From: an uncultured bacterium
GTDB lineage: Bacteria > CSSED10-310 > CAZUFC01
Assembly: GCA_964619725.1 (NCBI GenBank)
Contig: CAZUFC010000005.1
Location: 64,001-128,000, forward strand
Length of the DNA: 64,000 nt
Direction of reading: 5' to 3'
Positions 2 to 50,650 of this stretch are shown here, one piece after another. Within the stretch, counting starts at the first letter, position 1, and the number at the start of each line of letters is the position of its first letter. The notes under the pieces were generated by a model. It had not been told where the DNA came from. It did not search any database and saw only the letters and a list, made by a program, of their open reading frames with translations. A program made the position numbers and the translations under genes.

Positions 2-997
2 GTCACGGATTGGAATGGAGACAGTTCAGGAAACCTGTCGCTGGAAGCGGCGAGTCATCCTGTCGCTACTACGCCTTATACTCTGCCGGCAACTATCGAT
101 CATTCCTATGACGGCTATTACGACCAGGATGCGTGCGATGTGGCCGCCGATGCGGAAACCGTCTACGGATGGACCTCAGCCTCAGGCGGAGGACTGATTG
201 CATATGACGACGATGCTTCGCCCACTAACGGCGGACAGATCGTCTTCTTCTCATTCTCCATAGGAAACGTCACCGATAATACCGTCAGAAGCAACTTGAT
301 CGTTAATGCCGCACGATGGATCGCAGGCATCAGCGGTCCGGTTCCGACTCCTACGCCTTCCGTACCGCCTACTCATACGCCTACTTATACGCCTACCCTG
401 ACGCCTACAAGCATCCTTCCGACCTGGACACCTACATCTACTCCCACAGAAGTTCCCCCGACATATACTCCTACATACACGCCGACAGAAATTCCTCCAA
501 CCGATACTCCTACTTACACGCCCACGGAAGAACCGCCCACTTTCACGCCGACGCCTACCCCAACCCTTGACTGGCCTACATCAACACCGACATTCTACAT
601 TACGACTACTCCCACTGAAGGCACCCCTACCGTCTTCCCCTCACCCACTCCGACAGCCATTACCATCAAACTGATACTCAATCAGAACATGTTCCATTCA
701 AACGACGAATTCATCCTGGACTGCCGCATAATCAATCCCGGTCCCTTCGTAACGCTCGATCAATACATCATCCTGGACGTCGCCGGCAATTACTGGTTCT
801 ATGACAACTGGACTCAGGACGTCGATTGGGTTGAAAAGGAAATCCCCGCTTACTCTGATGAAGCGGAAAATATCCTCTACTTCGTCTGGCCGGAAGATGC
901 CGGGTCATTCTACGGTATAAAATTCTGGGCCGGTTTGCTCGATGACGGTTTCAACATCGTGGGTGAAATCGATTTCATCGAATGGGGATACGAGTAA
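2..997 (+). CDS. Secreted protein, 3' part only: ~110-aa Pro/Thr linker plus shared C-terminal domain (copy 1, ~656-997)
   Basis: Frame is open from nt 2, so the gene starts upstream of the window. PTPT-rich linker, then LNQNMF..ILDVAGNYWF..FVWPEDAG..EWGYE-stop. Confidence 0.85.
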   Translation, partial: VTDWNGDSSGNLSLEAASHPVATTPYTLPATIDHSYDGYYDQDACDVAADAETVYGWTSASGGGLIAYDDDASPTNGGQIVFFSFSIGNVTDNTVRSNLIVNAARWIAGISGPVPTPTPSVPPTHTPTYTPTLTPTSILPTWTPTSTPTEVPPTYTPTYTPTEIPPTDTPTYTPTEEPPTFTPTPTPTLDWPTSTPTFYITTTPTEGTPTVFPSPTPTAITIKLILNQNMFHSNDEFILDCRIINPGPFVTLDQYIILDVAGNYWFYDNWTQDVDWVEKEIPAYSDEAENILYFVWPEDAGSFYGIKFWAGLLDDGFNIVGEIDFIEWGYE

Positions 998-1061
998 TAA
1001 TAACGCCTGGACGACCAATCGTTCTAACTGTGAGACGATTGAAGGCCGGGCGATAAATCTG

Positions 1062-1097
1062 AAGCGGCGTCCGGACAATTTCCGGCGCCGCTTTTTT
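1062..1097 (+). terminator. Intrinsic terminator
   Basis: AAGCGGCG(t)CCGGA-caatt-TCCGGCGCCGCTT hairpin followed by a T-run, ~65 nt after the stop at 997. Confidence 0.75.
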
Positions 1098-1178
1098 GTC
1101 GCAGGGCAACTTGACGGTTTCTATGCTCTTAAGCAAGGAGCGGTGAACCGGAAATACTGCGCAGAAAAAATTGCAAAA

Positions 1179-2021: not shown

Positions 2022-2333
2022 AGAAAACCGGACGTATCTTTTATGGAAAATCCTTTTGAAGCGCGCCGGCGCCGTCAAAACGATGATCGATCGTTATGTG
2101 CTCAAAAATTGGTTGTTTTCCTGCGAATATATTATAATAATTGATGCGAAGTATTTTTCAGGATGCATGCAGAAAATGAAGGGCGATAAAAATGACATGT
2201 ACATCTCCTGACATTGAATGATAAAAAATTGTGAAATGCAAGAAAAACAAATTTTTTTAACAGTTTGTTACATCCTTGTTAAGAGCGCTGAAATATGAAG
2301 GCGAACAAGTTTCTTAATGAGAGGAGGAAAATA

Positions 2334-4307
2334 ATGAAGGCTTTTTTGAAAATGTATATTTTTTGTTTCGTCATATGGGTAATGATGAATGCTGTATCGG
2401 TTCAGGGTGACCCGACTCCGCAATGGTTATGGGAAGATAACGAGACGACGCAGATAGAGAGTTTGACGATTAATGCGGCAGGAACCATGTTGGCGGTGGG
2501 AACGCGAATGGGTCCGAACGGAAAGGGGATATTTGCTGTATTTGATTGGCGATATCCTGAGCCGATAATGCGTGAGGAGTATGCGGATACAACGGTATCA
2601 GGCGTGGCGCTTTCTGAAGACGGCGTATGGGCAGCCTGTAATGCGGGCGACACACTGTATTTATATGAAATACCGGGCATATTGAAAATGCAGTTCACAG
2701 ATACAGACGGCAATTTGAGGGACGTCGGATTCAGCGGGGATGGTTCATTGTTATATGCATCCCGGTATCTGGATTCCATGTTGACCGAAGGCGGCGCAGT
2801 GCATTTATTCGATGTTGACAATTTAGAGCTGCTGTGGACGGATGTATTGGGGGATCATTTAGAATTTGCACCGAGACTGAGAGTGACTAAAATTTCTGAT
2901 GACGGCTCACGAATATTGTGTACCTTTCAGACGGGCATGATGGGGGAGCCTGTTTATGCCGCTTTGTACCAAACGGATTCAGCGACGCCTGACGATCCGG
3001 TCTGGATTACGCCTCCTATTGAACCCTCGTATGTTCCTGAGTCTGATTTTGCCGGAGACGGAGAAAACTTCGTATTAGGTTCAGCCGTATATGTTCGATA
3101 TTATGACATGGAACCGCCTTCCGGCGGAGTCAAGGATCCGATATGGACGGAGACGGCGGGCGGACATTACACGCTCATGCACAAAGTTTCCATATCAAGG
3201 GATGGAAACACGGTAGGTCACTTCGGACCATATTCGGATTTGGCGGGCGATATCGTGCCGGGTTCGGTTGAAGTTTACGACGACGAAGGAAATCTTAAAT
3301 TTCATACGGAAACATATTACAAATGGCCTGAAGGCGATGTATCAGGCGACGGCTCCCGTGTCGCCTTCTCGAGTCTGAAAACAGAACAAGCCGTTGAGCC
3401 GAATTCATATGTGATGGGTGTTGAAGAAGAAGAGATAATATGGTCCGGTCCGGGCATCGGTAAAGTCATTATGGATGAAACCGGAGAGTCAATCCTGATG
3501 GGAGGCGGAACATACTACGATGCATCTTATGAACAAATGCTTTACTACAGGTTGGAAGATAATGAGCCCCCTGCTTGCGAAATTACGTCGCCGGAACCGG
3601 GTTCCTCGGTCGGCGGTTGCGTAACGGTGCAAGGAACTTCCGAAGACCTTGACGGTACAGTTTTATTTGTAGAATTATACATGCCCGACGGCAACCAGAC
3701 GGCTGATCCGGTCGGATCATCTTATGACCTGTGGACCGCCGTACTCGATTTCAGCTCGATTCCGCCAGGTCCGTTTACGCTCAAAGCCAGAGCGGTTGAC
3801 GAAAACTATAAATACGGCCCCTGGTTTGACATTGAAATAACCGTCTTTGAAGTTACTCAAACTCCGACTCCGCAGTTTACTCATACCCCTACTCAGGAAA
3901 ATACGCCTCTGCCGACTTGCACGCCCGATCCTGACGACACGCTCACTATAATGCTCGATATGCCCGCAAAATTATTCCGGCCCGGCGATACCTTCCGACT
4001 GGACGCTCATGTCTGGAATCCCGGTCCCATACTGACTGACATGCCGCTTGTGGTAATGCTCGAAATTTACGATAACTTATATTTCTGGCCCTCATGGAAC
4101 TGTCTTGAACCGGACGGCGCTGGGTTCGACTTTCAATTAAGAGATTTTCCCATAGGGCAAACTGATTGTGAAATAATACAAACATTTATATGGCCTCAAA
4201 ACGCCGGCGAAGCCTATGGCATCCTTTTCTACAGCGCTTTGCTCTCCGCGGATTTTACTTCCTTAATTTCTAATATGGATTTCATAACCTGGGGTTTTCA
4301 GGAATAA
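2334..4307 (+). CDS. Secreted beta-propeller protein with Ig-like domain, PT linker and shared C-terminal domain (copy 2, ~3939-4307)
   Basis: RBS GAGGAGG then ATG 2334; signal peptide; repeated [SA]xDG blades; PPACEITSP Ig start; FIWPQNAG..TWGFQE-stop. Confidence 0.8.
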   Translation: MKAFLKMYIFCFVIWVMMNAVSVQGDPTPQWLWEDNETTQIESLTINAAGTMLAVGTRMGPNGKGIFAVFDWRYPEPIMREEYADTTVSGVALSEDGVWAACNAGDTLYLYEIPGILKMQFTDTDGNLRDVGFSGDGSLLYASRYLDSMLTEGGAVHLFDVDNLELLWTDVLGDHLEFAPRLRVTKISDDGSRILCTFQTGMMGEPVYAALYQTDSATPDDPVWITPPIEPSYVPESDFAGDGENFVLGSAVYVRYYDMEPPSGGVKDPIWTETAGGHYTLMHKVSISRDGNTVGHFGPYSDLAGDIVPGSVEVYDDEGNLKFHTETYYKWPEGDVSGDGSRVAFSSLKTEQAVEPNSYVMGVEEEEIIWSGPGIGKVIMDETGESILMGGGTYYDASYEQMLYYRLEDNEPPACEITSPEPGSSVGGCVTVQGTSEDLDGTVLFVELYMPDGNQTADPVGSSYDLWTAVLDFSSIPPGPFTLKARAVDENYKYGPWFDIEITVFEVTQTPTPQFTHTPTQENTPLPTCTPDPDDTLTIMLDMPAKLFRPGDTFRLDAHVWNPGPILTDMPLVVMLEIYDNLYFWPSWNCLEPDGAGFDFQLRDFPIGQTDCEIIQTFIWPQNAGEAYGILFYSALLSADFTSLISNMDFITWGFQE

Positions 4308-4490
4308 AATTGCAAATCGACTTCCTCTGTTTAATGAAGCCGCGTAAAAACACTGGTTGAAGGGAACATATTGCCTGTACGGCACAACCTCGAACTGATT
4401 GGTTGGCCCTGGGAAAGCTGCGGTTTGGACGACACCGGCAGATGATAACATGCAAGCGGCCCTGATATAGACATTTGCCTGGGAATTATC

Positions 4491-4658: not shown

Positions 4659-4676
4659 CTTTTTTTGATTGTCTTT

Positions 4677-5090: not shown

Positions 5091-5100
5091 ATGGTGATTT

Positions 5101-8374: not shown

Positions 8375-8425
8375 GGCAAGCTTTCATTTATAGACTCAAA
8401 ACGAATTGAATGACGGTTTCCTTTT

Positions 8426-18192: not shown

Positions 18193-19599
18193 TCACCTTT
18201 TTCTTTTATAGAGAGCGAAGGAGAGGGTGATGCTGAGGAGCAGTATGCCGAGAGAAGTAAAAGCGGGAACAGCGGCGCAATTGTTTTCGAAGCCGAGGGA
18301 GAGTGCGAACCAGCGTTCTTCAGAGAAGTCGTTTCCGGAGTAATTGGTGTCTATGCCGTTAGGGCAGCGAGCGAGTGAGCTTCCTTCGAGTACGTTGAAG
18401 GCGGGATATTCAGCGATTTCGCCGAGGTCATTGGTGTGTTCATAAGTATTAGGGCTTCCGTAGAGAAGGGTATCGACGAGTTGCCCTCGTGTAGTCATGA
18501 GTCTGATGCCGCATGTATAGTCGTCTGCGCTGACGAAGTTGTCTATGGGAGTGGAATTCATGATGATGGTGCTGGGGGGTACGGAGGATACGTCGACATC
18601 GGGTTCAGCGATAAGGATGTATCCGTTCGGCGGGATACTGACAGGTGCAGTGGGGCTGCATTGCCAGGCCAGGTCGAAGGCGGCGCCGGCGGTTTCGAGG
18701 TACCAGCCGGAGATATTGATGTCACTGGCGGTGGTGTTATAGAGTTCAACCCATTGGTATCCTTCATCGGGACCTTCAGGATTATACATGACATCGTTGA
18801 TTAAAACTTCGCCCATATTTAATTCGTTAAAAAAGACGGTAAAAAACATATTGACGTTACCGTCGCCCAAATCTCGGGATGCAGCATCCATGTGGACTCC
18901 GATGAATCCGCCGGCAACGTCCACGCCGTCGCATGTATCAAAGGGCACTGTGGTGTCAGAGTCATTGTTCCAGTCGCCCTGGTTTTCAGCAGTGGCGGTG
19001 GAGAATCTAACGACATCGCCTCCGGTGAATCCCAGGTCGTCGAGCGGAATGGAAAATTCAACTACGTCATTATCAACGCTCACAGCGATTTCTTCCTGGC
19101 CGGAGGGCGGCTCGATCCATTCCGATCCTTCGTCGCTGTATAATTCGATGCTCCATTCCGATCCGGTCCAATGGAGGTCTAAATTCATTTCGGAATATTG
19201 AAGCGGCGACCACAATTCAATATTGGAATCATCTCCTAACCAATCGAGCGCCAGGTCGTCGTTCGAACCGTCGCGATCCAGCGACATCATTATGTGCATT
19301 GCGTGCGTTTCGTCTATGTCGGCCATTTTGTAAAGGAAGTAGAGGTTCGTCGTATCGCGCGTCATGCGGACTTCCACGATATCGTTGTTATCGGTCATTC
19401 CGGTTTCCGTGCGCCGGTCGCCGGCTTCTCCCATGTATATCCATTCATTGTTGGAGTAATTGTCGTCATGCAATTGCAGCGGCAATTCTCCTGTCCAGTC
19501 GGACGGGTCGCCGTCTATGGTAACGGCGGCGCCGGCCAGTCCCTGATTCATTACAAAAATGGTTAAGACGACGGCCGTTGCGAATAAATTTTTGATCAT
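18193..19599 (-). CDS. Secreted protein: carbohydrate-binding-like N-domain, lamin-tail domain and IPTL-CTERM-like anchor
   Basis: Signal peptide from MIKNLF; TIDGDPSDW; VLINDVMYNP..QWVELYN..INISGWYL (LTD); VPAFTSLG-TM-KRKR. Confidence 0.75.
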   Translation of the reverse strand: MIKNLFATAVVLTIFVMNQGLAGAAVTIDGDPSDWTGELPLQLHDDNYSNNEWIYMGEAGDRRTETGMTDNNDIVEVRMTRDTTNLYFLYKMADIDETHAMHIMMSLDRDGSNDDLALDWLGDDSNIELWSPLQYSEMNLDLHWTGSEWSIELYSDEGSEWIEPPSGQEEIAVSVDNDVVEFSIPLDDLGFTGGDVVRFSTATAENQGDWNNDSDTTVPFDTCDGVDVAGGFIGVHMDAASRDLGDGNVNMFFTVFFNELNMGEVLINDVMYNPEGPDEGYQWVELYNTTASDINISGWYLETAGAAFDLAWQCSPTAPVSIPPNGYILIAEPDVDVSSVPPSTIIMNSTPIDNFVSADDYTCGIRLMTTRGQLVDTLLYGSPNTYEHTNDLGEIAEYPAFNVLEGSSLARCPNGIDTNYSGNDFSEERWFALSLGFENNCAAVPAFTSLGILLLSITLSFALYKRKR

Positions 19600-19944
19600 T
19601 AAATCATCCCCCTTTTTGTAGGCTGAAGTCGAATTTTTCGTCTGATTTATTCGGTGTTTTCCTTTCCTGTTTTTTCCGATAAACATAATTTTCTCGTCAA
19701 CCGTACTTCCCATATTCAAATCGGAAAAAAACTTCTCCTATAATCCAATAACTTAATATGACTTAAAAATCAAATCAAATCCAAAGCATTCGGCTTTGAA
19801 TTCTTTTCAATCATCATTTTTTTCTGCTAATATTCCCTTGGATTATTAATTCTTGCAGGGCGGGAATTAATGCAGTCGCTTTACTGCAGGAGTCGTCCCG
19901 AATCAGATTGAACATTAAAGCAAAAAGAGACAGGAGAGGAAGAA

Positions 19945-25641: not shown

Positions 25642-25797
25642 TCTTGTCTCCTGTGGAGGTTCAAGGTTATTATGCGAGAGTTGTCATTAACAGTCAACGG
25701 TTTTTTCTTTTTTTACATTTTGTTATAATAGAAAAAGTAAAGACAGGATTGAGGCATGCATGCTTGCTTGCAGTGATTGATGCAAAGGAGGCGAACA

Positions 25798-27936
25798 ATG
25801 AGAACAGTTAGCTTTTTTAATGCAGGCGTATTTTTCAGCGCCGTCGTCGTTTTTTTGATCATCATGCAGAATGCAGGTTATGCCGATAAAGGTGGGTTGG
25901 AAGACAACATGTATGGATTCGTAAGTTATGGAGGCGACGAGAGTCCTCCGCTGGATGATGCGCCGGCGGTCATACGTTCGCTGGGAGCGGGGTGGCTTCA
26001 GTCTGAAGGCCCTGTTACTTTCAGCAGGGGAGCATGCTGGGGATTGATTCAGCCGGAGAATTTGTACGACTTTGATTGGGATACTGTGGAATGGGTAAAT
26101 GCAGCGGCAGCAGAAGGGCTTGGTGTTTTGATGGTCGTTGCTCCGGGCCATGATTCAGCGACAGTCGATAATTACAGTCCCTGGACCGACTGCGGCGGCG
26201 CCGGTCCAGTATGGCCGACGAGCAATTGTCCGCCGGGGGATTACCAGCAATGGTATGAATTCTGTTATGCCGTCGGCGAACATTTTGACGGGGAGCATGG
26301 CGCTCCCCGCATCGATTATTACATGACAACCGGCGAAACGGACGATGTAAATTACTGGCTGGGAAGCGCTGAACAGTACTACGGAGGTTCTGAAGCGACT
26401 GTTGTAACGAGGCGAAACAATATGGGTCAGGTTGAATTGCCCGCTGCGCTGGTCCCTGTGCTGGAACTTGGAATAAAAGATGCGAATCCTGATGCGAAAA
26501 TTGTGGTAGGAGCTTGCACAGCCTGGCGATCATACGCATGGAATCATTTGAAGGATATGATCGACAGCGGCGCTTCTGAGGATGAAGTGACGACGCAGGC
26601 TAAACGATATGGCCTTACCGACTCCTTTGCCCAACTTGTGAACAGGTTGGAAAACGATCCGCTCGTCAGGAGATCGGTGGAATTTCTATGGGCGAGCTTA
26701 TCCATGCCTCAACATTATGATATCTATGGAGCGCATTACTATGCCATGCATGGATATCATGATGCCATTTCCTATCTTCTTGATCAAATGGAGGAATCTG
26801 CCGTCAACAAACCAGTCTGGATGACGGGCGAAGGAAGGCCTTTCTCCGGCGATGCAGCGGGTCATCTGAAAAGCGCGGACCTCCATTTAAGGCGCATAAT
26901 CTATTCGCATGCCCTCGGTCTTGACTGGCACGACGTTTCATTCCTGGTCGACGTCGTTCTTTTTAATTGCTGCGGAATGTACAAGCTGCCTCAGGCCGGC
27001 AGGGATTATCCCGCCAGACGTCCGCTTGCGGATACTTTTCGTCTGATGGCTCACCTGTTCCCCTCAGCCGGTTGCGCTACGCCTCAAGATGTCGAATCTC
27101 CTTATGCTGATACGGAACTTTTTTCCTTTTCCGTTCAGCATCCCGGTACGGGATATGCCGGAGGCGCAGCGGCAGGATGGTGCGAAAACACCTGTCCGGA
27201 ATTTTCGAGTATAGGAATGTGGTGTACTGAAGGTTGTCCGAAGCCGGAAATCGATATCAGCGCTGTTCTGGATATCTCTGACGGAACGGCAGTAACAGTC
27301 CTGGATGCTGCTGGAGAAATCATCGAACATAACGACGACGGATATTGCCCGGTCGTTTTCGATGAGTCTCCATTCGTTGCCGTTTGGGGACCGGACCGTG
27401 ACGGCGATGAGATTCCCGATATACTGGATAATTGTCCTGAAACTTCCAATCAGGATCAAACCAATAATCCGGCAGAACATCTGGAGGGAAACGGGAATCC
27501 GCAAATTCCCGCTCCCGACTGGATCGGCGATGCCTGCGATCCCTGTCCTGACGACGGTCATCCCGATTGCGGTCAAACGTGCGATACGACGGGAGTGGTA
27601 CTATCTATGCCCACTCAATGGTTTACTCCCGGAGACAACTGCTTTTTGACCGCTTCCGTCTGCAACGCATCAACCGCAGACCTGAACGGCAATCCGCTCT
27701 TCGTTATACTGGACGTATACGGCCAATACTGGTTCGCCCCCGGATGGACAGAAACCCCCGACGCCTATTCCCGAAACTATGAACCGGGACTCACCGTCAT
27801 ATCGGTCATCAATCCGTTCCAGTGGCCGCAAAATACGGGAACCGCCGAAAATATTTTCTTTCATGCAGCACTTACCGATCCCGGAATCACTACCATACTG
27901 GGAGAAATGAGCTCCTGGCGCTTCGGATGGGAATGA
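25798..27936 (+). CDS. Secreted clan GH-A-like TIM-barrel protein with TSP3 Ca-binding repeats and shared C-terminal domain (copy 3, ~27586-27936)
   Basis: AAGGAGG RBS; WGLIQP..YDFD, IKDANPDAKIV, DIYGAHYY, KPVWMT; DRDGDEIPDILDNCP..IGDACD; FQWPQNTG..RFGWE-stop. Confidence 0.75.
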   Translation: MRTVSFFNAGVFFSAVVVFLIIMQNAGYADKGGLEDNMYGFVSYGGDESPPLDDAPAVIRSLGAGWLQSEGPVTFSRGACWGLIQPENLYDFDWDTVEWVNAAAAEGLGVLMVVAPGHDSATVDNYSPWTDCGGAGPVWPTSNCPPGDYQQWYEFCYAVGEHFDGEHGAPRIDYYMTTGETDDVNYWLGSAEQYYGGSEATVVTRRNNMGQVELPAALVPVLELGIKDANPDAKIVVGACTAWRSYAWNHLKDMIDSGASEDEVTTQAKRYGLTDSFAQLVNRLENDPLVRRSVEFLWASLSMPQHYDIYGAHYYAMHGYHDAISYLLDQMEESAVNKPVWMTGEGRPFSGDAAGHLKSADLHLRRIIYSHALGLDWHDVSFLVDVVLFNCCGMYKLPQAGRDYPARRPLADTFRLMAHLFPSAGCATPQDVESPYADTELFSFSVQHPGTGYAGGAAAGWCENTCPEFSSIGMWCTEGCPKPEIDISAVLDISDGTAVTVLDAAGEIIEHNDDGYCPVVFDESPFVAVWGPDRDGDEIPDILDNCPETSNQDQTNNPAEHLEGNGNPQIPAPDWIGDACDPCPDDGHPDCGQTCDTTGVVLSMPTQWFTPGDNCFLTASVCNASTADLNGNPLFVILDVYGQYWFAPGWTETPDAYSRNYEPGLTVISVINPFQWPQNTGTAENIFFHAALTDPGITTILGEMSSWRFGWE

Positions 27937-28982: not shown

Positions 28983-30365
28983 TCAAGGATGCCAGTCGAA
29001 GCTGACGGTGTCCAGCTCGCCGATGATATCGGTAATTTCAGGATTAGTCGCCCCGGCATACCATGTCGCTGTCCCGCTGCCGGCTCCTGAAGGCCACACG
29101 AAGGGGTCCAGCACATTTATCAGCGTTTCTCCGGGGTTCAGGTCGTACGTGTAATGATCGAAGCTGGAAAATGAGGGAGCGAAGAAGTATTCGCCGTACA
29201 CGTCGAGAATGGCGAAAACGGGCGTTTCTTCCATCGTCGTTGCATTGGTATTGCAAAACGTTACGTTGCAGTAGTACTCGTCGCCTGCGCCGAAATCTGT
29301 TTCGGGCAGTTCAATTGAGCAGCCCAGGGTTGAACAGCTCGAAGGTTCTTCGCTGATCACGATCCCTACCGGTGATGCGTTATAACCAGGTTCGGTATTC
29401 AGGTCCACTGAGTCCGCATAGGTTAAACTTTCGCCGCTGACGTCGTATGCATAACATTCATCTTCATTATGCTCCGTGACGTAAATCCGGCTGCCTGCCG
29501 CGTTGACGGCTATTCTTCTCGGATTGCTGGGAATATCGGCTGAAGATACTATCGTCTCGTCGCTCAACCTCATCATGTTCACCACCGCATCAACACCCAG
29601 GTAGTGACCTATGAACAAATATTCGCCGTCAGGCGATATTCCTATGCCTCGAGGCTTCATTTCATCTGTCGTTATGGGCGCCAGCGCCTCGTCGTCCGAT
29701 GTTCTTATCACTTCAATCTGATCCTCCGCCATATTGCTGACGTAAACGCGGCTGTCGTCAGGGGTGATTACCGCATCCTGAAGAGCATATCCGTCGAAGT
29801 CAAGAACGGTCGTTACAGTATTATCAGAGGTCCTCAAAACATAAACGTCCGCATTCTGATAATCCACGATGTAGGCTTTTTCTCCGTCTGAAGTAAAAAC
29901 GATGAAATTAGGACGGCCGCCTATGGATACGGTGTCGACGTAAGCCGCTGTCGAGGCGTTATATATACCTATTTCCCCCGTTTCCTCAAACGTTACGTAT
30001 GCTTGATTCCCGTCCGGCGTGATAGCCGCGCCCATCGGACGGTTTAAAATTATATCCCCAAGGTCGATCGTTGTGATGCTGGTGAATGTCTCCGTGTCGA
30101 TCAGCATTATATATTCCCGTGGTGGGCAAGTCACCCATAAACGCGATCTGTCCGGCGTTATCGCCACCGTGTGCGCATTATCATACAATTGCAGCGTATC
30201 CACTATTTCGAGATCGTCCGCATTCAGCTTCGCCAGAGTCGCCCAATAGGGACTGTCGCCGTGAACATACGAATTCACCACGTAAACATAGTCCTGTGCC
30301 GATACCGACACTACGGTCAACAAGACCGCCGCCGTCATTATCATTATTGCTCTCATTCTCATCAT
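28983..30365 (-). CDS. Secreted YncE/YVTN-type beta-propeller with shared C-terminal domain (copy 4, 28983-~29330)
   Basis: Repeated ITPDG/ISPDG..[YF]V blades; ILDVYGEYFF..FVWPSGAG..SFDWHP-stop. Confidence 0.85.
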   Translation of the reverse strand: MMRMRAIMIMTAAVLLTVVSVSAQDYVYVVNSYVHGDSPYWATLAKLNADDLEIVDTLQLYDNAHTVAITPDRSRLWVTCPPREYIMLIDTETFTSITTIDLGDIILNRPMGAAITPDGNQAYVTFEETGEIGIYNASTAAYVDTVSIGGRPNFIVFTSDGEKAYIVDYQNADVYVLRTSDNTVTTVLDFDGYALQDAVITPDDSRVYVSNMAEDQIEVIRTSDDEALAPITTDEMKPRGIGISPDGEYLFIGHYLGVDAVVNMMRLSDETIVSSADIPSNPRRIAVNAAGSRIYVTEHNEDECYAYDVSGESLTYADSVDLNTEPGYNASPVGIVISEEPSSCSTLGCSIELPETDFGAGDEYYCNVTFCNTNATTMEETPVFAILDVYGEYFFAPSFSSFDHYTYDLNPGETLINVLDPFVWPSGAGSGTATWYAGATNPEITDIIGELDTVSFDWHP

Positions 30366-35871: not shown

Positions 35872-36678
35872 TTAAGCCTTTCGGCTGTTTCTCCTGTTCA
35901 ACCGGCAAAAAACCGTCGCCGGTCTTCTGAAAAAAAGCAGAAGCATGAAAGCTGATACGGCTATGATCATTCCCCAAATATTCATGGCTGGGACGAGCGG
36001 CGATTCGGGCGTGGGTGATGGAGAGGGCGTGTTGGTCGGAACAGGAGTCGGCGTTTGCGTGGGCGTATTAGTGGGTTCGGGCGTCGGAGTCGCAGGAGTG
36101 TCGATTTGCACGCGAAGAACCCAGTCGCCTTGCAAACCAAATTGCTCAGAAAAAAACCAACCCACTCCAGGCACATAGATGAAATTAACTCCCGGATTAA
36201 TATTGCCGTCAGCATCACGATAAAAACTAGGTGGAGGGTCCTGGAAAAATTCAAAACCGACTCGGATCATTCCGCTTTCGATTGTAATCGGAGGAATTAT
36301 ATCAAAATCGTTCCAATATGGTCCAGCCGTCAATTGAACGCCTTCCGGCGCTTTTAAAGTTGGACCGGGTTGCATAGCGCCGGTGTCCTCCCACAAATGA
36401 AGGATGAACGGTCCTATTGTTCCCCCGCTTCCGCCGTCGCCCACCAGGACTCGAACCTTCGTCAGCTCATAAGGATAATCCTCCGGTTCGGCCACAAAAC
36501 GTGCCGCCATTATTTCATTTGCGACGAACCCTGCCTGATAGAAAGCCAATCCGCCTTCAACAAAACCGTCATTTTTCAACCATTTCAAAGCGCATTCAGC
36601 ATCCGGCGAAAATGATAAAAGAAAGAAAACAGTCAGTGCAAAACTGATCCTTGCAACGAATCTTCCTTTTGATTCCAT
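35872..36678 (-). CDS. Secreted protein with PT linker and IPTL-CTERM-like anchor
   Basis: GGAGG RBS; signal peptide; PTPT linker; VPAMNIWG-TM-RR. Confidence 0.75.
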   Translation of the reverse strand: MESKGRFVARISFALTVFFLLSFSPDAECALKWLKNDGFVEGGLAFYQAGFVANEIMAARFVAEPEDYPYELTKVRVLVGDGGSGGTIGPFILHLWEDTGAMQPGPTLKAPEGVQLTAGPYWNDFDIIPPITIESGMIRVGFEFFQDPPPSFYRDADGNINPGVNFIYVPGVGWFFSEQFGLQGDWVLRVQIDTPATPTPEPTNTPTQTPTPVPTNTPSPSPTPESPLVPAMNIWGMIIAVSAFMLLLFFRRPATVFCRLNRRNSRKA

Positions 36679-37025
36679 ATTATTCCTCCATTTCATGCTC
36701 AGGCAAATTATATGTGTTAGAATGATTCAAGCCTCCTGAACTTTTTTATAATAGGAAATTTGCAGAAATGCAAATATACGGCTTTTACGTTCGTTTATGC
36801 CGAATAAAGAACCCTTATAATGCCCTTTCAACAGGACGCTTTTGATGAAGAACATCCTCTGCCTTGAAAAATGAAACTTTTTCAATGAAAAAGTGTCTAT
36901 AAGAGATGAGGATGATGAATTGCGGATATTTGTTGGAATGGAGGAGCAGAAAGTCGGTGATAATGTTTCAGGAAGGTTCCTGATCTGAATGAAGGAAAGG
37001 GCCGGCTAGGGAAGGAAGTTGAATC

Positions 37026-40429: not shown

Positions 40430-40447
40430 TTGATAGTTAAACAATAA

Positions 40448-41887: not shown

Positions 41888-41908
41888 GGGGTCAGAGCTC
41901 TTCCGCAA
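41888..41908 (+). repeat. REP-like repeat copy D (degenerate)
   Basis: GGGGTCAGAGCTCTTCCGCAA preceded by CCGGCATCC. Confidence 0.65.
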
Positions 41909-43090: not shown

Positions 43091-43180
43091 AGTTATTCGT
43101 TGCATGAGCGATTAGGCGAAAATGCAGTGGAGAAGGCCGCACCGGGAACTCTAAACATTTATCAGATAAAGGAGAATAAA

Positions 43181-44707
43181 ATGAAGTATACTCGAATACT
43201 TTTGTTTTTTGTTTTAGTTGTCCTCGGCGCGACGGCGCAGGCTTCTGATTGGGAAATTGAAACGGTCGACTTGACGGGATTGATCCCCTGGAATTACAGC
43301 GACATGGTTTTTACTTCCGACGGGTATCCGCATATCGTTTTTCAGGCCCTGACGCAGTTGATATCCTTTCCTTATTATATGGAAAAAACATGTGACGGGT
43401 GGGAAGTTCCGCCGCAAAGACTGGATGATGGTCCTGAAACAGGGGCCTGGACGACCATGACCGTCGAAGATGATGGCGATATTCATGTCGCCTGGCAGAA
43501 TATTCAATTAAGGGAATTACGTTATGCTTCCGAGGATTCGGGGTGGGACATTCATCCGTTTGAGGATTTCAATGACGAAGGAAATTTCAATCATATTTTT
43601 ATGCGACAGAACGATCAGCCCGAAATTATTTATGCGGACACCTCCAATTATCAGATTGAAATAGTAAGACAGAATATTACCGGCGTATGGGGAGAAGAAG
43701 AAGTCATCAGGAACACGCCGGTCCTTGCCATTGTAAAAGACTTTTCCGTCCTTAAATACGGCGAGCAAAATTATGGATTCGCTTATGCGACTTACCAGAG
43801 TCCGGACCTGAACGTTTATTACGCCCTGAACGATGATGAAGAAGAGCTCGTTTACAGTCGCTCCGAAAACGGTTCGCTTTTTATAAAACTCCTGGGCGAT
43901 GCGCAAAATCCCATAATACTTTACCTTCTGGATGGAGCTCTTTTCTTCGCTTACAGAACTGCAAGTTGGACGGTTGAACCGATAATGGACGACTTACAGA
44001 ATAAAGCCTTCGATGCCGCTCTCGATCCCAACGGAAATATCTGGTTTGCGGCGATCGACTTATCTGGCGCTCTCATAGTCGGCCGCGGCGATCAGAACGG
44101 ATGGAGCTCAGAAACAGTGGACGCTGGAAGCCAGTATAAACTTCCTGCCATGCAGATACTCGGCGACCTAACCATAGCCGTTTCCTACTTCAATCCTTCA
44201 GGTCCCTCAATGAAATACGCCACATCTCAGGTAAGCGTTCCGACACCTACCGTCACAGCTTCTCCCGTCATCACTCCAACTCCCTCCACACCGACCGTCT
44301 CCCCGGAAATTTCCCCCTCGCCCACGCCCGATCAGAACCTTCCTCAAGTCACGTTGGAATTAAACCAGTCCGTTTTCTATCCAGGCGATATGTTTAATCT
44401 GCAGGCCAGAATCGTTAATTCCACCAGCATAGTCTATTATGTCGACCTCTTTGCCATGCTGGAAGTCTACGGCCTCTACTTCTTCTGGCCCGAATGGAAC
44501 CAGGCGAATATTGGATGTCAGTCTCACATTCACCTTTCCCCACAGCAGTTTAAAAAGTTTCAGATACTCAAATTTACCTGGCCCGATGATTCCGGCTCAG
44601 GCGCAGCGACTTTCTACGCCGCCGTTATGGGCAGCGAATCGCCGGAAGATTGTGAAACCGAAGCATTTTACGATATGGATTCTGTAACCTTCTCCTGGGA
44701 TGACTAA
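43181..44707 (+). CDS. Secreted beta-propeller-like protein with PT linker and shared C-terminal domain (copy 5, ~44339-44707)
   Basis: AAGGAG RBS; signal peptide; W..ETVD / DG.[PI]H[IV] repeats; MLEVYGLYFFWP..FTWPDDSG..TFSWDD-stop. Confidence 0.8.
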   Translation: MKYTRILLFFVLVVLGATAQASDWEIETVDLTGLIPWNYSDMVFTSDGYPHIVFQALTQLISFPYYMEKTCDGWEVPPQRLDDGPETGAWTTMTVEDDGDIHVAWQNIQLRELRYASEDSGWDIHPFEDFNDEGNFNHIFMRQNDQPEIIYADTSNYQIEIVRQNITGVWGEEEVIRNTPVLAIVKDFSVLKYGEQNYGFAYATYQSPDLNVYYALNDDEEELVYSRSENGSLFIKLLGDAQNPIILYLLDGALFFAYRTASWTVEPIMDDLQNKAFDAALDPNGNIWFAAIDLSGALIVGRGDQNGWSSETVDAGSQYKLPAMQILGDLTIAVSYFNPSGPSMKYATSQVSVPTPTVTASPVITPTPSTPTVSPEISPSPTPDQNLPQVTLELNQSVFYPGDMFNLQARIVNSTSIVYYVDLFAMLEVYGLYFFWPEWNQANIGCQSHIHLSPQQFKKFQILKFTWPDDSGSGAATFYAAVMGSESPEDCETEAFYDMDSVTFSWDD

Positions 44708-45176: not shown

Positions 45177-47033
45177 ATGAAGAGACGCGTTTCGGCAATG
45201 ATTTTTCTGAGCGTATTATGGGGAATGACTGAGGCAAGGGCTTCGGTGCCCCATCAAATTAACTATCAGGGGCATGTGACCGACGATCAAGGGACGCCCT
45301 TGACGGGGAGTTATCAGTTTATTTTCAGGATTTTCGATTTGGAGACAGGAGGATTGCCTTTGTGGATGGAGTCTCATGAAAATGTAGCGGTCAGATCAGG
45401 ATTATTCAATGTGATTTTAGGGGCCATTTTTCCCTTGAATCTGGATTTTGACGAGACTTATTGGCTGGAGATCAAATTTGAGGGCGAGGTGATGTCGCCG
45501 AGGCTCAAGATGACGAGTACTGGACAGGCATACCATTCAGAGATATCAGAAGACGTATATGATTATGACGTGCATCCCCGGAGCGTTGCTGTAACGGGGT
45601 ATGGAGAGGTGATAAATGAAAGCGGTGAATGGGTCGGGAGTCCGACAGGTTTGACCGGACCGACAGGACCGTCGGGTCCGACAGGACCAATGGGGCCGGA
45701 TGGACAGATCGGAGCTACAGGACCGAGAGGTCCGAGCGGTCCCGGGGGGCCATCAGGTCCTATGGGTCCGCATGGCCAAACCGGGGCTACCGGACCGGCA
45801 GGCGCTTCGGGACCGTCAGGACCGTCGGGTCCGATGGGGCCGTTCGGGCAAACCGGCGCAACCGGTCCTACCGGCCCCGTGGGGCCTAGCGGTCCGAGCG
45901 GACCGATGGGACCATTCGGTCAGCCTGGCGCTGCCGGACCTTCAGGTCCTTCGGGACCGACAGGACCCGGAGGACCCTCCGGACCACAGGGTTCGTTTTC
46001 ATGCGGAGTTGAAGAAAACTGCGCATCATCTTATCCGGGAGCCTGGGTGACAAATTCGTCCGGGCATGGCGCCTGGTTTGAATATACGGCCGGCGGCGAC
46101 GGCGTTGGGATGATCGGCAAGAGTTCCTACAGGGGCATTGAAGGACAAAACAACAATGGTAATTTCGGATATATCGGCAGCGGAAGTAATGGAGTGTTCG
46201 GTTATGCCGCCGGAATGGGAAACCAGGCTGTCTACGGCGAAAATTCTGTCGGGACCTACGGGCTGCTGGGCGGCGGTATGCGCGGAGTCGAAGGCGGCAG
46301 GTCTTCAGGTTATCCCTGGGGTTATATCGGCAGCAGCGCCAGAGGCGCTGAATTCGTCGACGGTCCTCAAAAAGGCGTTATTATGGCCTACAGCGCCAGG
46401 GCCCTGCAGGCCTCGCAGGGTTCCGACAACTGGGCTGCTCTAGCCGATGCCGGCGGAAATGCTCTTTATGCTGAAACTGCCGATCCCGAAGGTTATGCCG
46501 CTAATATTAGAAATGAGGGTGGGGCAGGCTCTCCCGCATTATACCTCAACGGCTACGGTTACGGTCATTCTTGGCTCTCCTACGGCAAACATTTCGCCGT
46601 TGTTGTAAATACTGATCAAGGCCGCAATTTGCTCTTTTCCATTACAAGTCCCCACAACGAAATACAAACTTCCGGGCAGGGCAGAATGCAAAACGGCAAA
46701 GCGATTATCAAATTCGACCCTGAATTTTCAGAATTATTGTCCGATAATCACAACATGAGAGTCATCGTCACTCCCCAGGAACAATGCAACGGACTCTTTG
46801 TCGCTCATAAGTCCAGCAAGGGCTTTATCGTTGAAGAATTATTGAATGGAAAATCCGATGCAGCCTTCGACTGGATCGCCATCGCCAGAAGAAAAGGTTA
46901 TGAAGACCATAAAATAGAACAATACTTCCCTCTGCAAAACAAACCCGGAGCTCTCTCTCCATCGCAAAACACCGATCCGGGATATTGCCGCACCGATTCC
47001 GTGAGTTCAAAGGTCGCCTTCACCCGGAAATAA
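45177..47033 (+). CDS. Secreted collagen-like fibre protein
   Basis: Signal peptide; [10 protein letters not shown]-domain; 38 uninterrupted G-X-Y triplets (45648-45989); Gly-rich beta region; C-terminal domain ending [13 protein letters not shown]. Confidence 0.85.
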
Positions 47034-47695
47034 CATCTAAAAAAAGAACCCGGACAGACAATGGGAAGTTTTCGTCTGACCGGGTTCGAGAAGGGGAGTT
47101 TTTTGAATCACTCCTGCCGGCAGGTTGGGTAACTGAAGATCGATCGGAGTTCCTGCTCACTCTCGATACCATTCTTGACATTACCGCCATTATGAAAGCA
47201 AATTCCAGGCCAAAATTTTAGAAAAACAGTTCATCGTATTTTATTGTATATATTGTTTTTTTTGATTATGTCCCAGATGACATGCTGTAACGGATTGAGT
47301 TACTTGCTGCCGCTGTTCGCTGGGCTTTATGAACCGGATGACAGGGAAAGGGCCGGCATTTTATCCTTTCAGGTTTTGAAAATAAAAACGTCTGGTCTAA
47401 AATGACGCCCTAAAAAAATGTAATATGTTTCATTACACTCAGAAAGCCTATTCTTGATGGAAAAATCCTCCTCTGCAAAGTCGCTGTCGGTTGGTCGCCT
47501 TGAAAACGACTGTTTTCTTCATTAGAATTATTCGTGTGTTAGAAAGGCGGCAGAAAGTCTGGGAATTCCAGGCTTTTACCGGCTTCCAGTTTATATCAAA
47601 AGTGAAATAATACTGTTTAAGGTGATTGGATAAGTCGGATTCATTCCGCAGGGCCGGGTTAATGAGCGTAATGAGACTGAAATCCAGGGGGGGCA

Positions 47696-50650
47696 GTGAT
47701 GAAAAACAAAAAGAAGAGTCGATTTATCATTTTTAGCGCCATTTTTTTATTTTTTTCGTTTGTCGTCCAGGCGGCGCCTGAGGGAGTCGGTCATTCAACG
47801 GAAAAGTGTTTGCAGGGAAGCGCTTCGATATCTCTGCTGCCGTTAAGGATAAGGCTCCAGAATAATTTATCGACCTGCAGAACAGACGAACCAGTCACTT
47901 TCGGGGTGCCTCTGGGTTATTTTGAGGATATCAGGGACCTTGATTCTTTGGATTTGAAATGCAACGGAGTAAGCGTCCCTGTTCAAAAAAGAGCGACGGC
48001 TCGGTGGGCGGGAAGTCCGAACGACGGCGCTCGGCCCTTGCAATGGCTGTTGCTTGATTTTCAGGCTTCGATTCCAGCGGGTGAATATAAGGATTATATC
48101 CTCTGTTCAGCTCCTTCGTCGTCATATGACAGCCCGCTTCAGATAATAGCGGATACGGCGGAGTCGTTCGCTGTGGATACGGGAGCGGCCGTATTCAGGC
48201 TTTCCAAACAGAATTTTAAGCTGTTCGATCAAGTGATTTTGGCAGAGGGGAAGACATACGGCCCCTGTGAAGGCATTAGATTCGGGGATTTCCAAACCGG
48301 CGCGGTTGAATTGAGGGTTGAGGAGCAGGGGAAGGAGCGGATTGGAATAAGCATAAAGGGAACACTGAGCAATGGTCTGGAGTATACGTTGAAGTTGGAT
48401 TTCTACAAGGGGAAATCATATGTTCGGGGTCGTTTTCGTCTGGAAAATTTAAATACAATTCAGACGGACGGCGGCGGACAACCTCAATGTAATGATTACG
48501 GATCATCGGGAAGCGCAAGTTTCGATGATTTGAGCCTGGTGATAGCCGGGAACGGGGCATCCCTGTGTCTGGTTCCGGCGGGTGAAAACGGTGCAGCGGG
48601 GACGACATCTTTGAATTTCGTATCGGAAGTGAGCGTGGTGCAGGAGTCGAGCGGCAGATCAGGATGGGACCATCTTTTAACGGAGCATCCCCGGATGCAG
48701 TCAGGGACTTCGAAGCGATCGTCGACGATAAGGATAGATGGGATTGAAGGCGATGGTCCAGGGCGTTTCGGCGGATGGCTGGATGCTTACGGAGTCACTA
48801 TAGCTGTTAAGGATTGTTCGGAAAACTTTCCGAAGGCGTTTCGAGCTTCAGACGACAATCTGGAACTGGGGCTGTTTCCCGGGGAATACAGCATGGATCA
48901 TGAGTTTCGCGCCGGTGAATTCAAGACTCATTCATTCTTGATTTATTATCATGAGGATGATCAAGCAGACCAGTGTGAAACCGCGAATGCATTTCTCAAA
49001 CCGTTGAAGCCGGAAATTGCGGCGGATTATTTAATGGAAACGCGGTCGCTGGGATTAATGGCTCCGAGACGCCAGGAAGATTCCATGACGCAGGACTATG
49101 AGGATTATATTGATTATATGCTGGAGCCTTCGCCTGATTGGAGCGGCGAGGAATATCCCTGGCCGACGCTTCTTGCGAGCATAAACAATTTTAATCATTA
49201 TGGCTATGTGGATTACGGCGATGTCCCTACAGATTTCGAATGTTGGTCTGAAACAGCAGCGGCTCCCTACAACCTGAAGTATGATGCTTTAAAAGGAATG
49301 TACTTCGCCTGGTTAAGAACAAATGATCCTGCTTGGGGTCGTCTGGCCGAGGCGGGGGTAGTTCACTATGCTGATTTTGATATACTGCATTCGGAGGTCA
49401 GAGGCAAACATGCGGACCGATTGTGGTTTCAGGGCGGCGCTTACGGGCATGGGTATCATGATGAGCGAGGCAATGCGAATCCTCATAGAAATTATATGAA
49501 TCCGCATCCCTCCATGTCATTCGCCGTGCCGGGCATGATACTCCATTATTTTCTGACCGGCGATTCGCTTGTCGGGGACGCTGCGCTCGAGTTAGCCGAG
49601 AATATGTACTGGCGGATTACCCATTCGGGATACTGGGAATCCGGGCCCTGCGGATCAATATTAAGAGACTGCGATCCTGAAGCGGACGAATGTCACGGCT
49701 GGTCCGAATTCTTCTGGGGGAGACTGGGAGGCAATGCCTTTAAATCTTTTCTTTCCGCATATATGACGACCGGCGATGACGACTACATCGAAATACTGGA
49801 AAGATGCTGCGAATACATGGTCTGCTGCGATACTCAAGTCGATTCCATCAACGATTGCGACAGGTATCATTTTAAATGCACATTCCTCAGTTACCTTTGC
49901 GAATACATACTTTACAGGAGACTCACAGGATATCCCGACGACGATAACGCCCTCTATGTCCTGGGCTCCAGTATCGATTACATGATCAACGTTCTATGGG
50001 ACCACGATGCCGAACAGTTCCGGATGTGTTACGAAACAGCGGAATTATACGATTTTCACGATAACTGGCTGGTTGCCGTCGCGGACGTCTTGGCCGGAGC
50101 AGCCCTTATTTTCAATGACGAAACCATTTTTACGGATTATGCCGTTCCCGTTTTCCTGGATGGAACCGCCAATCCCTTCTGCCCCGGATGCGATTTCTCC
50201 TATAATTCCGCCAAGGAGTTCGTCAATGGAGTCGGATTCGGACATGTTTTCCTATACGCGTATGATTATTACTCTCCGCCGGCCTTCACGGGCGTGCGTC
50301 TGGAAATGCCGTCAACCCAATTTTCACCGGGAGACCAGTGCTGGTTGAATGCCGTGCTGTCCAACGAAGGACCGGAATTGAACGACGTTCCGCTCTTCGT
50401 TATTCTCGATGTCTTCGGAGAATACTGGTTCTGGAACGACTGGAAGCAGGAACCCGATTACGGACGAGTCGATCTGCCCGCAGGCGCCTCCGTCACTATA
50501 ACCATAATCGACCCGTTTCAATGGCCTGACACGGGTTCGGACGAACTTGACGGCATTGTTTTCTGGAGCGGTATGACCGATCAGGACCTGTCGGAAATAC
50601 TGGGCGGCATCGAAGGTATCGGTTCCTGGGAATTCGGATACGGACCTTGA
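47696..50650 (+). CDS. Large secreted protein resembling exo-rhamnogalacturonan lyase/YetA (RIFT barrel plus alpha-toroid) with shared C-terminal domain (copy 6, ~50285-50650)
   Basis: EPVTFGVPL, WLLLDF, VDTGAAVF, YGYVDYGD, H..DFD..H; ILDVFGEYWFW..FQWPDTG..EFGYGP-stop. Confidence 0.65.
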   Translation: MMKNKKKSRFIIFSAIFLFFSFVVQAAPEGVGHSTEKCLQGSASISLLPLRIRLQNNLSTCRTDEPVTFGVPLGYFEDIRDLDSLDLKCNGVSVPVQKRATARWAGSPNDGARPLQWLLLDFQASIPAGEYKDYILCSAPSSSYDSPLQIIADTAESFAVDTGAAVFRLSKQNFKLFDQVILAEGKTYGPCEGIRFGDFQTGAVELRVEEQGKERIGISIKGTLSNGLEYTLKLDFYKGKSYVRGRFRLENLNTIQTDGGGQPQCNDYGSSGSASFDDLSLVIAGNGASLCLVPAGENGAAGTTSLNFVSEVSVVQESSGRSGWDHLLTEHPRMQSGTSKRSSTIRIDGIEGDGPGRFGGWLDAYGVTIAVKDCSENFPKAFRASDDNLELGLFPGEYSMDHEFRAGEFKTHSFLIYYHEDDQADQCETANAFLKPLKPEIAADYLMETRSLGLMAPRRQEDSMTQDYEDYIDYMLEPSPDWSGEEYPWPTLLASINNFNHYGYVDYGDVPTDFECWSETAAAPYNLKYDALKGMYFAWLRTNDPAWGRLAEAGVVHYADFDILHSEVRGKHADRLWFQGGAYGHGYHDERGNANPHRNYMNPHPSMSFAVPGMILHYFLTGDSLVGDAALELAENMYWRITHSGYWESGPCGSILRDCDPEADECHGWSEFFWGRLGGNAFKSFLSAYMTTGDDDYIEILERCCEYMVCCDTQVDSINDCDRYHFKCTFLSYLCEYILYRRLTGYPDDDNALYVLGSSIDYMINVLWDHDAEQFRMCYETAELYDFHDNWLVAVADVLAGAALIFNDETIFTDYAVPVFLDGTANPFCPGCDFSYNSAKEFVNGVGFGHVFLYAYDYYSPPAFTGVRLEMPSTQFSPGDQCWLNAVLSNEGPELNDVPLFVILDVFGEYWFWNDWKQEPDYGRVDLPAGASVTITIIDPFQWPDTGSDELDGIVFWSGMTDQDLSEILGGIEGIGSWEFGYGP

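Follow-up and report, generated by a model that had tools for sequence, protein, structure and literature searches.

The stretch of DNA described here, hereafter called the window, consists of 64,000 nucleotides from an uncultured bacterium of the phylum CSSED10-310 and corresponds to C5:64001-128000, a part of contig C5 of the source genome G000 (9.17 Mb in 344 contigs, 90.9% complete, 6.5% contamination). An earlier inspection of the letters without database searches, the sequence-only reading, had proposed that six otherwise unrelated secreted proteins encoded in the window share one conserved domain at their C-termini, and that this domain may be the recognition signal of a lineage-specific export or surface-attachment pathway. 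We have followed up this proposal computationally, and use CTD (C-terminal domain) for the terminal domain shared by the six proteins and passenger for the part to which it is attached. The CTD is a real, uncatalogued C-terminal localisation domain. The six genes and their CTD copies are listed below with the independent E-value (iE) of each copy against a hidden Markov model (HMM).

2..997, + strand: 3' part of gene 1 (full gene C5:59826-64994, 1,723 amino acids), which comprises a signal peptide, a C25 peptidase passenger, a long Pro/Thr linker (~338-643) and the CTD
644..994, + strand: CTD copy 1, ending in EWGYE-stop; HMM iE 2.6e-45
2295..4307, + strand: gene 2, made up of a signal peptide, a beta-rich passenger that includes a Big_7 immunoglobulin (Ig) domain, a Pro/Thr linker (~3849-3926) and the CTD
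3927..4304, + strand: CTD copy 2, ending in TWGFQE-stop; HMM iE 1.4e-48
25777..27936, + strand: gene 3, with a signal peptide, a passenger, a Cys-rich spacer and the CTD
27574..27933, + strand: CTD copy 3, the copy modelled with AlphaFold2, ending in RFGWE-stop; HMM iE 4.8e-50
28983..30365, - strand: gene 4, with a signal peptide, a YVTN/lactonase-type 7-bladed propeller and the CTD
28986..29342, - strand: CTD copy 4, ending in SFDWHP-stop; HMM iE 7e-46
43100..44707 (likely start near 43181), + strand: gene 5, with a signal peptide, a passenger, a Pro/Thr/Ser linker (~44228-44326) and the CTD
44327..44704, + strand: CTD copy 5, ending in TFSWDD-stop; HMM iE 9.8e-44
47696..50650, + strand: gene 6, with a signal peptide, a PcRGLX-like (lyase-type) passenger and the CTD
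50276..50647, + strand: CTD copy 6, ending in EFGYGP-stop; HMM iE 4.8e-45

In the alignment of the six tails (A1), about 120 residues can be aligned at 22-35% identity with 9 invariant columns, and the HMM recognises all six genes at iE values from 9.8e-44 to 4.8e-50, which bears out the proposal of one shared domain. The six endings that had been quoted occur exactly in the translations, and the segment limits that had been given by eye lie within ~12 bases of the HMM boundaries. Signal-peptide-like N-termini are seen in the five complete genes, where signal peptides had been noticed, and likewise in the full-length gene 1, and the three Pro/Thr linkers that had been counted belong to genes 1, 2 and 5. 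The description of the passengers as propellers, a glycoside hydrolase (GH)-like barrel and a lyase-like protein stood only in part. The propeller of gene 4 was correct, and so was the lyase-type passenger of gene 6, whose class was taken from the Pfam domains of its homologues. Gene 1 encodes a C25 peptidase instead of a propeller (PF01364 match at C5:60612-61577 within its open reading frame (ORF)), gene 2 has a Big_7 match and propeller matches that are non-significant only, gene 3 has a TSP_3 repeat as its sole Pfam match and belongs to no GH family, and the passenger of gene 5 matches no Pfam or NCBIfam family. The window contains exactly six CTD copies, and two further copies lie upstream on the same contig.

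Copy number, position and distribution of the domain

The first HMM, built from A1, was searched against the stop-to-stop ORFs of at least 60 amino acids in G000 and matched 218 of them at E<=1e-3, 166 at <=1e-20 and 42 at <=1e-30. A second HMM, built from an alignment of 46 diverse CTD copies (A2), matched 221 forward ORFs but none of the 53,820 that had been reversed. Because the reversed ORFs gave no match and the E-values are strong, the likeness among the CTDs is not due to chance. The expectation that six copies in one window imply many more in the genome has thus been confirmed, with ~220 copies in G000.

The sequence-only reading had also suggested checking whether the domain is almost always terminal and paired with a signal peptide, and it is indeed almost always terminal and mostly on proteins with a signal-peptide-like start. 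In G000, no more than 10 residues separate the CTD from the stop codon in 203 of 219 instances, mostly 0-4, and nearly every CTD protein carries a single copy, tandem copies being nearly absent. Gene-based counts on G000 rest on crude calls of 6,067 genes, 217 of them with the CTD. By a heuristic, a signal-peptide-like N-terminus was assigned to 153 of these 217 proteins and to 1,192 of the 3,709 remaining genes that are 250 amino acids or longer, a comparison set that includes membrane proteins, and a further transmembrane-like segment after residue 60 is present in only 3 of the 217. The 40 residues upstream of the CTD consist of Pro, Thr or Ser to at least 45% in 102 of 210 cases, and the mean pairwise identity among 177 full-length copies is 29%. 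Copies at other positions are rare: the CTD follows the signal peptide directly in two proteins, arranged as signal peptide-CTD-TIG-...-FGE-sulfatase and signal peptide-CTD-5'-nucleotidase-CARDB, and it is internal in two or three further proteins, so that N-terminal and internal copies make up ~2% overall.

A profile search of 1.84 billion representative proteins, clustered at 50% identity, found the CTD in 2,725 clusters at E<=1e-3 and in 2,313 at <=1e-10, and the last copy lies within 10 residues of the C-terminus in 148 of the 150 best worldwide representatives. When a single CTD tail was used, metagenome-assembled genomes (MAGs) of candidate division CSSED10-310 were among the relatives that have names. 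A Cytophagaceae MAG that appeared to be a carrier outside the phylum was rejected, because its one partial match was spurious and the genome contains 0 CTD matches. For comparison within the phylum we used 14 CSSED10-310 genomes, including G000, G004 (60% complete), G005, G006, G009 (69%), G010 (86%, 30 contigs) and G012. The CTD is present in 11 of the 14 (families f1-f4), with 60 to >150 copies each and up to 277 candidates, and G010 has at least 108; it is absent from the other three (families f5-f7; 87-96% complete; 5.5-9.2 Mb). The paper devoted to CSSED10-310 (PMC8248873) predicts Gram-negative cells and a sister position to Acidobacteriota and leaves the CTD unmentioned, and the titles and abstracts of the remaining full-text literature naming the phylum point to nothing on protein sorting.

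Fold and comparison with known domains

The AlphaFold2 model calculated with A2 (pLDDT 96.2, pTM 0.87) has eight beta-strands in ~115 residues, arranged as an Ig-like beta-sandwich. The best PDB matches by Foldseek were RhoGDI/ML-type sandwiches and CARDB (E ~7e-4, TM-score ~0.5). An exhaustive VIA-align comparison gave the dextranase N-domain (Z 9.6), CARDB 3idu (Z 9.0), RbmA (Z 8.6), and GH2 accessory and macroglobulin domains, with the porphyran-binding carbohydrate-binding module (CBM) 8wae (Z 7.8) and the Wzt carbohydrate-binding domain (Z 7.5) as further matches. The scores of CARDB and the dextranase N-domain are within the range of a common, generic Ig-like arrangement in which no single match stands out, and the CTD as modelled is a generic Ig-like/E-set sandwich without an outstanding relative. 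Sequence searches place it in no curated family: Pfam and NCBIfam at E<=0.1 gave no match on the tails of the six window proteins. Pfam at E<=10 on the 46 copies gave six unrelated families with one member each and nothing consistent, and a profile search of PDB sequences gave nothing below E 0.48. The best feature scores in the ESM Atlas (0.85-0.87) were to clusters without a name and below the level taken as meaningful.

The most conserved CTD positions are N34, L49, P59, W61, F85, W87, P88, F99 and the aromatics at 120 and 122. Outside the core they are N34, P59, W61, D66, W87, P88 and the same two aromatics, and P59, W61, D66, W87 and P88 are in loops. Going by the strand order of the model, rather than its coordinates, these conserved loops and the C-terminal strand would share one end of the sandwich.

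An ordinary carbohydrate-binding or Ig-like domain that directs enzymes to external polymers, or serves generic adhesion, with no localisation to the producer cell, would be consistent with the fold matches to glycosidase accessory domains, CARDB, the CBM 8wae, the Wzt domain and RbmA, with the conserved aromatic-rich loop positions, and with the Pro/Thr linkers and some non-terminal copies. We nevertheless consider such a role rather unlikely. The cargo consists mostly of peptidases, nucleases, phosphatases and propellers, not of glycosidases; CBMs commonly occur in tandem, an arrangement nearly absent here; and the 98% terminal position together with mutual exclusion with two localisation tags, as described below, points to localisation on the cell. 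There is also no CBM or CARDB signal in the sequence at E<=10. CARDB (PF07705) has the same general beta-sandwich form, at scores in the generic Ig-like range (for 3idu, root-mean-square deviation 3.6 A over 104 residues by VIA-align; Foldseek TM-score 0.58), and certain homologues of the gene 6 passenger carry it in the terminal slot. Of the 46 CTD copies, 0 match PF07705 at that threshold, and hhalign gives a probability of 0.1% against a CARDB-bearing homologue.

One of the closest known analogues in logic is the type-A CTD of type IX secretion systems (T9SS) in Bacteroidota (TIGR04183/PF18962). Both domains combine a Sec signal peptide with an Ig-like sandwich at the extreme C-terminus; both occur on 60 to >200 diverse exoenzymes per genome, encoded by genes scattered over the genome; and their cargo overlaps in C25 peptidases, Porphyromonas-type arginine deiminase and M14 carboxypeptidases. 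PMC4804311 describes the T9SS CTD as a seven-strand Ig-like sandwich of ~75 residues, whereas the model of our domain has eight strands in ~115 residues, and the frequent Pro/Thr linkers and rare N-terminal or internal copies in CSSED10-310 are also unlike the T9SS CTD. TIGR04183 and PF18962 have no match in the six proteins, in the 46 copies (E<=10) or in the six-frame translation of G000, and hhalign between A2 and a profile (A3) of 11 genuine Por_Secre_tail domains gives a probability of 1.1%. Models for SprA, PorV, GldM and GldN (TIGR04189, NF033710, TIGR03517, TIGR03523) have 0 matches in G000 at its 90.9% completeness, and no SprA or GldM match was found in G005, G009 or G010. Since the built-in controls were silent, we used a Cytophagaceae MAG, G014, as a positive control, in which SprA (2,611 bits), GldM (484 bits) and 101 Por_Secre_tail matches were detected. 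No T9SS CTD structure was among the listed fold matches, an absence that does not exclude similarity.

The CTD is therefore not a T9SS CTD, as the sequence-only reading had judged from the motif. A divergent type-A or type-B CTD served by a cryptic T9SS would share the same logic of signal peptide and terminal Ig-like sandwich and the overlapping cargo classes; with the profile comparison, the missing family matches and core components in G000, and the differing length and strand number all against it, we regard it as extremely improbable. Eleven genuine T9SS-type CTDs were found in G009 on contigs of 2.7-6.4 kb (C274, C513, C433, C243 and others; L083-L093), and one Por_Secre_tail match on a short contig of G006. 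These matches are probably bin contamination, in the case of G009 from a Bacteroidota-like organism, because its tails lie on short contigs and no SprA or GldM accompanies them.

Exchange with other C-terminal tags

Among 68 worldwide representatives scanned, 40 have a Pfam family at E<=1e-6. Peptidases account for 17 of the 68 and include C25 with propeptide, S8, M14, M6, M28, C1, C39-like and trypsin-like members. Further cargo includes Porphyromonas-type arginine deiminase (PAD_porph), endonuclease I, phosphatases, GH15, amidase, a PETase-like hydrolase, BNR/sortilin, Kelch and FG-GAP propellers, beta-helices, VWA and FGE-sulfatase. Gingipain-family C25 peptidases are expanded throughout the phylum, with 26 matches in G000 and, for most relatives, between 8 and 16, and they are spread over all three of the C-terminal tag classes described in this section. 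A C25 peptidase as a PorU-like sortase that tracks the CTD was considered and rejected, because 15 matches are present in the CTD-free genome G012.

The type-I dockerin (PF00404) is found in 14 of 14 phylum genomes, and family f3 has 21-55 matches per genome beside 60-92 CTDs. In G005 we examined 15 ORFs among 21 PF00404 matches. None of the 15 has a CTD, and in 12 the dockerin lies within 17 residues of the C-terminus. The passengers of 13 match those of CTD proteins (BLAST E<=1e-10) and two have no such match; nine of the dockerin/CTD passenger pairs align over 458-1,592 residues at 39-60% identity. The dockerin and the CTD thus occupy the same C-terminal slot on homologous passengers in a mutually exclusive manner, and both usually follow a linker, occur in single copy and are mostly terminal. 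The dockerin differs as a Ca-binding helical repeat from the beta-sandwich of the CTD, and PF00404 has no match in the six window proteins or the 46 copies, which supports the earlier exclusion of this family. It also has the cohesin as its partner, whereas CTD counts do not follow cohesin counts (in G010, at least 108 CTDs and 1 cohesin).

A second alternative tag consists of a hydrophobic helix followed by a basic tail, resembling IPTL-CTERM/PEP-CTERM-type signals (TIGR04174 and relatives). A heuristic assigned this structure to 304 of 4,979 G000 genes of at least 150 amino acids, and 0 of the 304 carry a CTD, which separates the CTD from this membrane-type tag as well. Of the 304, 177 also have a signal-peptide-like start and no internal transmembrane segment, and an [IV]P[AST]x motif typically precedes their helix, so that the two tag classes are similar in size in G000 (~177 and ~217). 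Every giant adhesin examined (up to 12,076 amino acids) and most cohesin proteins belong to the IPTL-CTERM-like class. As with the dockerin, the tag occurs on paralogous or orthologous passengers: 121 of 202 CTD passengers have a G000 paralogue covering at least 60%, and 65 of the 202 have a paralogue with a membrane tail instead, with identity up to 68% over 836 residues. In G012, 0 of 13 C25-peptidase ORFs have a CTD, and 9 of the 13 end, as judged by eye, in a VPTLS-type tail. Of eight G012 tails compared with models, one passes IPTL-CTERM TIGR04174 (24.9 bits, cut-off 20.5) and five are weakly exosortase-substrate-like. The tag is a motif of ~30 residues made of a Pro motif, a transmembrane helix and a basic tail, in contrast to the soluble, folded CTD without such a helix, and it is presumably processed by an exosortase-family enzyme, for which G000 has one PF09721 match. 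PEP-CTERM TIGR02595 has 0 matches in the 14 genomes, but the control was also silent, so that this search is uninformative. PMC8671808 refers to IPTL-CTERM as an annotated sorting domain, for example on an S-layer protein.

Three genes with such a membrane tail, and without a CTD, are found in the window, where both tag classes therefore occur side by side:

18193..19719, - strand: LTD-domain exported-type protein, with an IPTL-CTERM-like tail (Pro motif, hydrophobic helix, basic end)
35872..36696, - strand: small exported-type protein with an IPTL-CTERM-like tail
54886..55956, - strand: PETase-like hydrolase with a signal peptide, a Pro/Thr linker and an IPTL-CTERM-like tail

Homologues of the gene 6 passenger show a similar variety, since 0 of 42 have a CTD and they end in dockerin-like repeats, CARDB, PKD or BACON, or straight after the catalytic domain. 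On the basis of these swaps with the dockerin and the membrane tail on homologous passengers, the CTD is one of at least three mutually exclusive C-terminal localisation modules. The same evidence bears on an intramolecular chaperone or pro-domain that would be removed after folding and have no addressing role. A terminal position behind a linker would be compatible with such removal, but a single domain family is attached to dozens of unrelated folds, homologous passengers fold in its absence, and an N-terminal propeptide is already present in the C25 cargo; we consider this role highly improbable.

C-terminal address domains are the defining feature of entire secretion or display systems, as in the case of T9SS CTDs, dockerins and sortase signals, and have become tools for exoproteome prediction and surface-display engineering; the CTD follows the known logic of these modules and adds a fourth, uncatalogued one. 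In some genomes of the phylum ~3-4% of all genes carry it, including those for most degradative enzymes identified among the cargo, and a curated model would annotate thousands of proteins now called "hypothetical", judging from the number of clusters given above. The same passengers carrying the CTD, a dockerin or an IPTL-CTERM-like tail offer a natural experiment in the partitioning of the exoproteome of a diderm. What is new here is the positive control for T9SS, the three-way exchange of tags, the 11/14 split of the phylum, the non-terminal copies, the comparison of CTD and passenger rates and the secretin-cohesin lead described below.

Surface retention, export and candidate receptors

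The reading that we favour, with a confidence somewhat short of even, is that the CTD is a non-covalent surface-retention module. In a clade of the diderm phylum CSSED10-310, hundreds of Sec-exported enzymes and binding proteins carry it as an independently folding, eight-stranded Ig-like sandwich of ~115 residues at the extreme C-terminus, usually behind a flexible Pro/Thr/Ser linker. After export, it would keep the passenger on the cell surface or within the cell's own matrix by binding a lineage-specific envelope glycan or an anchored receptor protein non-covalently. The predicted binding face is the conserved aromatic-rich apex including the free C-terminal strand, as the topology suggests, and the function would be closer to that of a dockerin or a surface-binding CBM than to that of a cleaved export signal. 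Binding and retention are favoured because of the Pro/Thr/Ser linkers and the rare N-terminal and internal copies, and because of the exchange with the dockerin, a known non-covalent anchor. They are also favoured because the CTD is conserved equally to its passenger (over 51 collinear homologous pairs, identity is 0.39 for the CTD and 0.40 for the passenger, the CTD being the lower in 28), and because other export capacity exists, with 7 secretins and 6 Omp85-family matches. The dockerin-tagged homologues and the giant adhesins, which lack the CTD, show that the general export route is independent of it.

Several points weigh against surface retention. Our searches found no ligand or receptor for the CTD, and among the 619 neighbours up to two genes away from the 217 CTD genes, no family was clearly enriched over the full gene set. 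The extreme terminal bias and single copy are stricter than usual for CBMs and fit a recognition signal with a free C-terminus. The cargo of C25 peptidases with propeptide, PAD_porph and M14 parallels classical T9SS cargo, and the restriction to one clade (11/14) would also be expected for a co-evolved machine. The swap with the IPTL-CTERM-like signal shows only that the CTD is a localisation tag and not that it acts by binding, and the placement of the apex is drawn from the topology of the model and not from coordinates.

Cross-referencing the cohesin and secretin searches has revealed a secretin with a cohesin match in the same frame:

C12:72043-74577 (L108:8044-10578) in G000: TPR-secretin-cohesin gene; orthologues at L109-L116 and L118-L121

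The protein is composed of TPR, Secretin_N, Secretin, a disordered linker of ~70-100 residues and a C-terminal cohesin-like domain of ~125 residues, encoded in G000 at C12:74176-74577. Full-length orthologues, from TPR through cohesin (280-446 bits, 32-37% identity), are present in 9 of the 11 CTD-bearing genomes, two of them split at contig ends. Neither profile nor full-length searches found an orthologue in G004, G010 or the three CTD-free genomes, the last of which have only paralogous secretins at <=70 bits. A four-gene core operon is conserved in 5 of 5 loci, where the gene is accompanied by those for a TPR/OstA-like protein, an extracytoplasmic function (ECF) sigma factor and an anti-sigma factor of zf-HC2 type; two ABC-exporter half-transporter genes lie upstream in 3 of them. 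In G000, a TldD/PmbA-type gene pair (L108:10614-13333) lies directly downstream of the secretin-cohesin gene. The literature on secretins, cohesins and dockerins, as far as titles and abstracts show, concerns cellulosomes and display and gave no description of this fusion.

The folded CTD may instead be the translocation signal for the outer membrane in an undescribed pathway that works like T9SS without being T9SS, with the TPR-secretin-cohesin protein as its candidate reader. The extreme C-terminal position with one copy per protein and a Sec signal peptide, the hundreds of diverse exoenzymes with a T9SS-like spectrum, the clade restriction, the distribution of the orthologue (9/11 vs 0/3) and the operon conserved in all five loci argue for such a pathway. 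However, the CTD-bearing genomes form one clade, so that any clade-specific gene would give the same pattern, and the orthologue is missing from the CTD-rich G010 as well as from G004. More distant TPR-secretin-cohesin fusions occur elsewhere, one labelled Acidobacteria, so that this arrangement probably arose before the CTD and may serve dockerins. Homologous passengers with a dockerin or membrane tail need no CTD, ~2% of the copies are N-terminal or internal, and no ATPase or pseudopilin gene lies beside the secretin. On balance, we hold an export signal to be possible but unlikely. The proposal of a lineage-specific export or attachment signal therefore survives as far as the slot shared with known localisation modules is concerned; the suggested search for co-distributed machinery yielded the secretin-cohesin gene as the only outer-membrane candidate, in a pattern confounded by phylogeny.

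In its most specific form, the CTD would be the cargo signal of a secretin-based export route, in which a tethered cohesin-like receptor, one per ring subunit, captures folded enzymes in the periplasm and feeds them to the channel. Such a route would be under ECF sigma control and coupled to the TPR/OstA-like periplasmic protein and the ABC exporter, and it would be type-II-like with a defined, transferable folded signal. We regard this as improbable. A complex prediction for the CTD (A2) and the cohesin-like domain of the secretin (A4) scored 0.00 in two runs without controls, which speaks neither for nor against binding. If it is true that a secretin-tethered cohesin-like domain reads the CTD, the long-sought defined folded signal for a secretin pathway would be at hand.

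Other candidate receptors for the CTD were also considered. Cohesins as the general receptor were rejected, because the single cohesin of G010 adjoins its one dockerin while the genome has at least 108 CTDs. Nothing stood out among 52 small anchored candidates, whose largest family other than cohesins comprises 4 proteins of 131-178 amino acids. A windowed self-BLAST found repeats in 260 of 485 large G000 proteins, and none of the top 14 is cohesin-like; these are giants with beta-helix, FG-GAP, Kelch or LamG domains, or are without a family.

These searches have also given a view of the other surface proteins of G000. The genome has a cohesin-dockerin system in a diderm, with 34 cohesin and 11 dockerin matches. 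Scaffoldin-like proteins combine 2-3 cohesins with an IPTL-like tail (e.g. C15:19637-21160, C154:3358-5616, C8:63867-66596 and C64:25767-27521), and N-terminal dockerins are present on giant beta-helix proteins (C9:11326-20364 and C45:21307-30321). The genome carries an unusual number of giant repetitive surface proteins, which reach 12,076, 8,470, 6,388 and 6,390 amino acids, with more besides (C34:1739-37966, C39:32566-57975, C2:121226-140389, C8:95413-114582 and others). The repeats in them are of the beta-helix/NosD-like, FG-GAP, Kelch and laminin-G types; in two proteins of ~6,390 amino acids the first 1,500 residues give no Pfam match.

The rest of the window is occupied by housekeeping genes (RecA, H+-PPase, IscU/IscS, OTCase, TldD/PmbA and others), and the CTD genes are therefore scattered. 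Adjacent gene pairs for TldD/PmbA-type metallopeptidases are found twice in the window (19945-22679 and 38888-41815), in addition to the pair mentioned above. Two sigma-54-dependent activators, one with an FHA domain, are encoded at 8426-10162(-) and 57856-59199(-) and are unlinked to the CTD. A gene at 45177-47033(+) encodes a signal peptide followed by collagen triple-helix repeats (PF01391) and has none of the three C-terminal tags.

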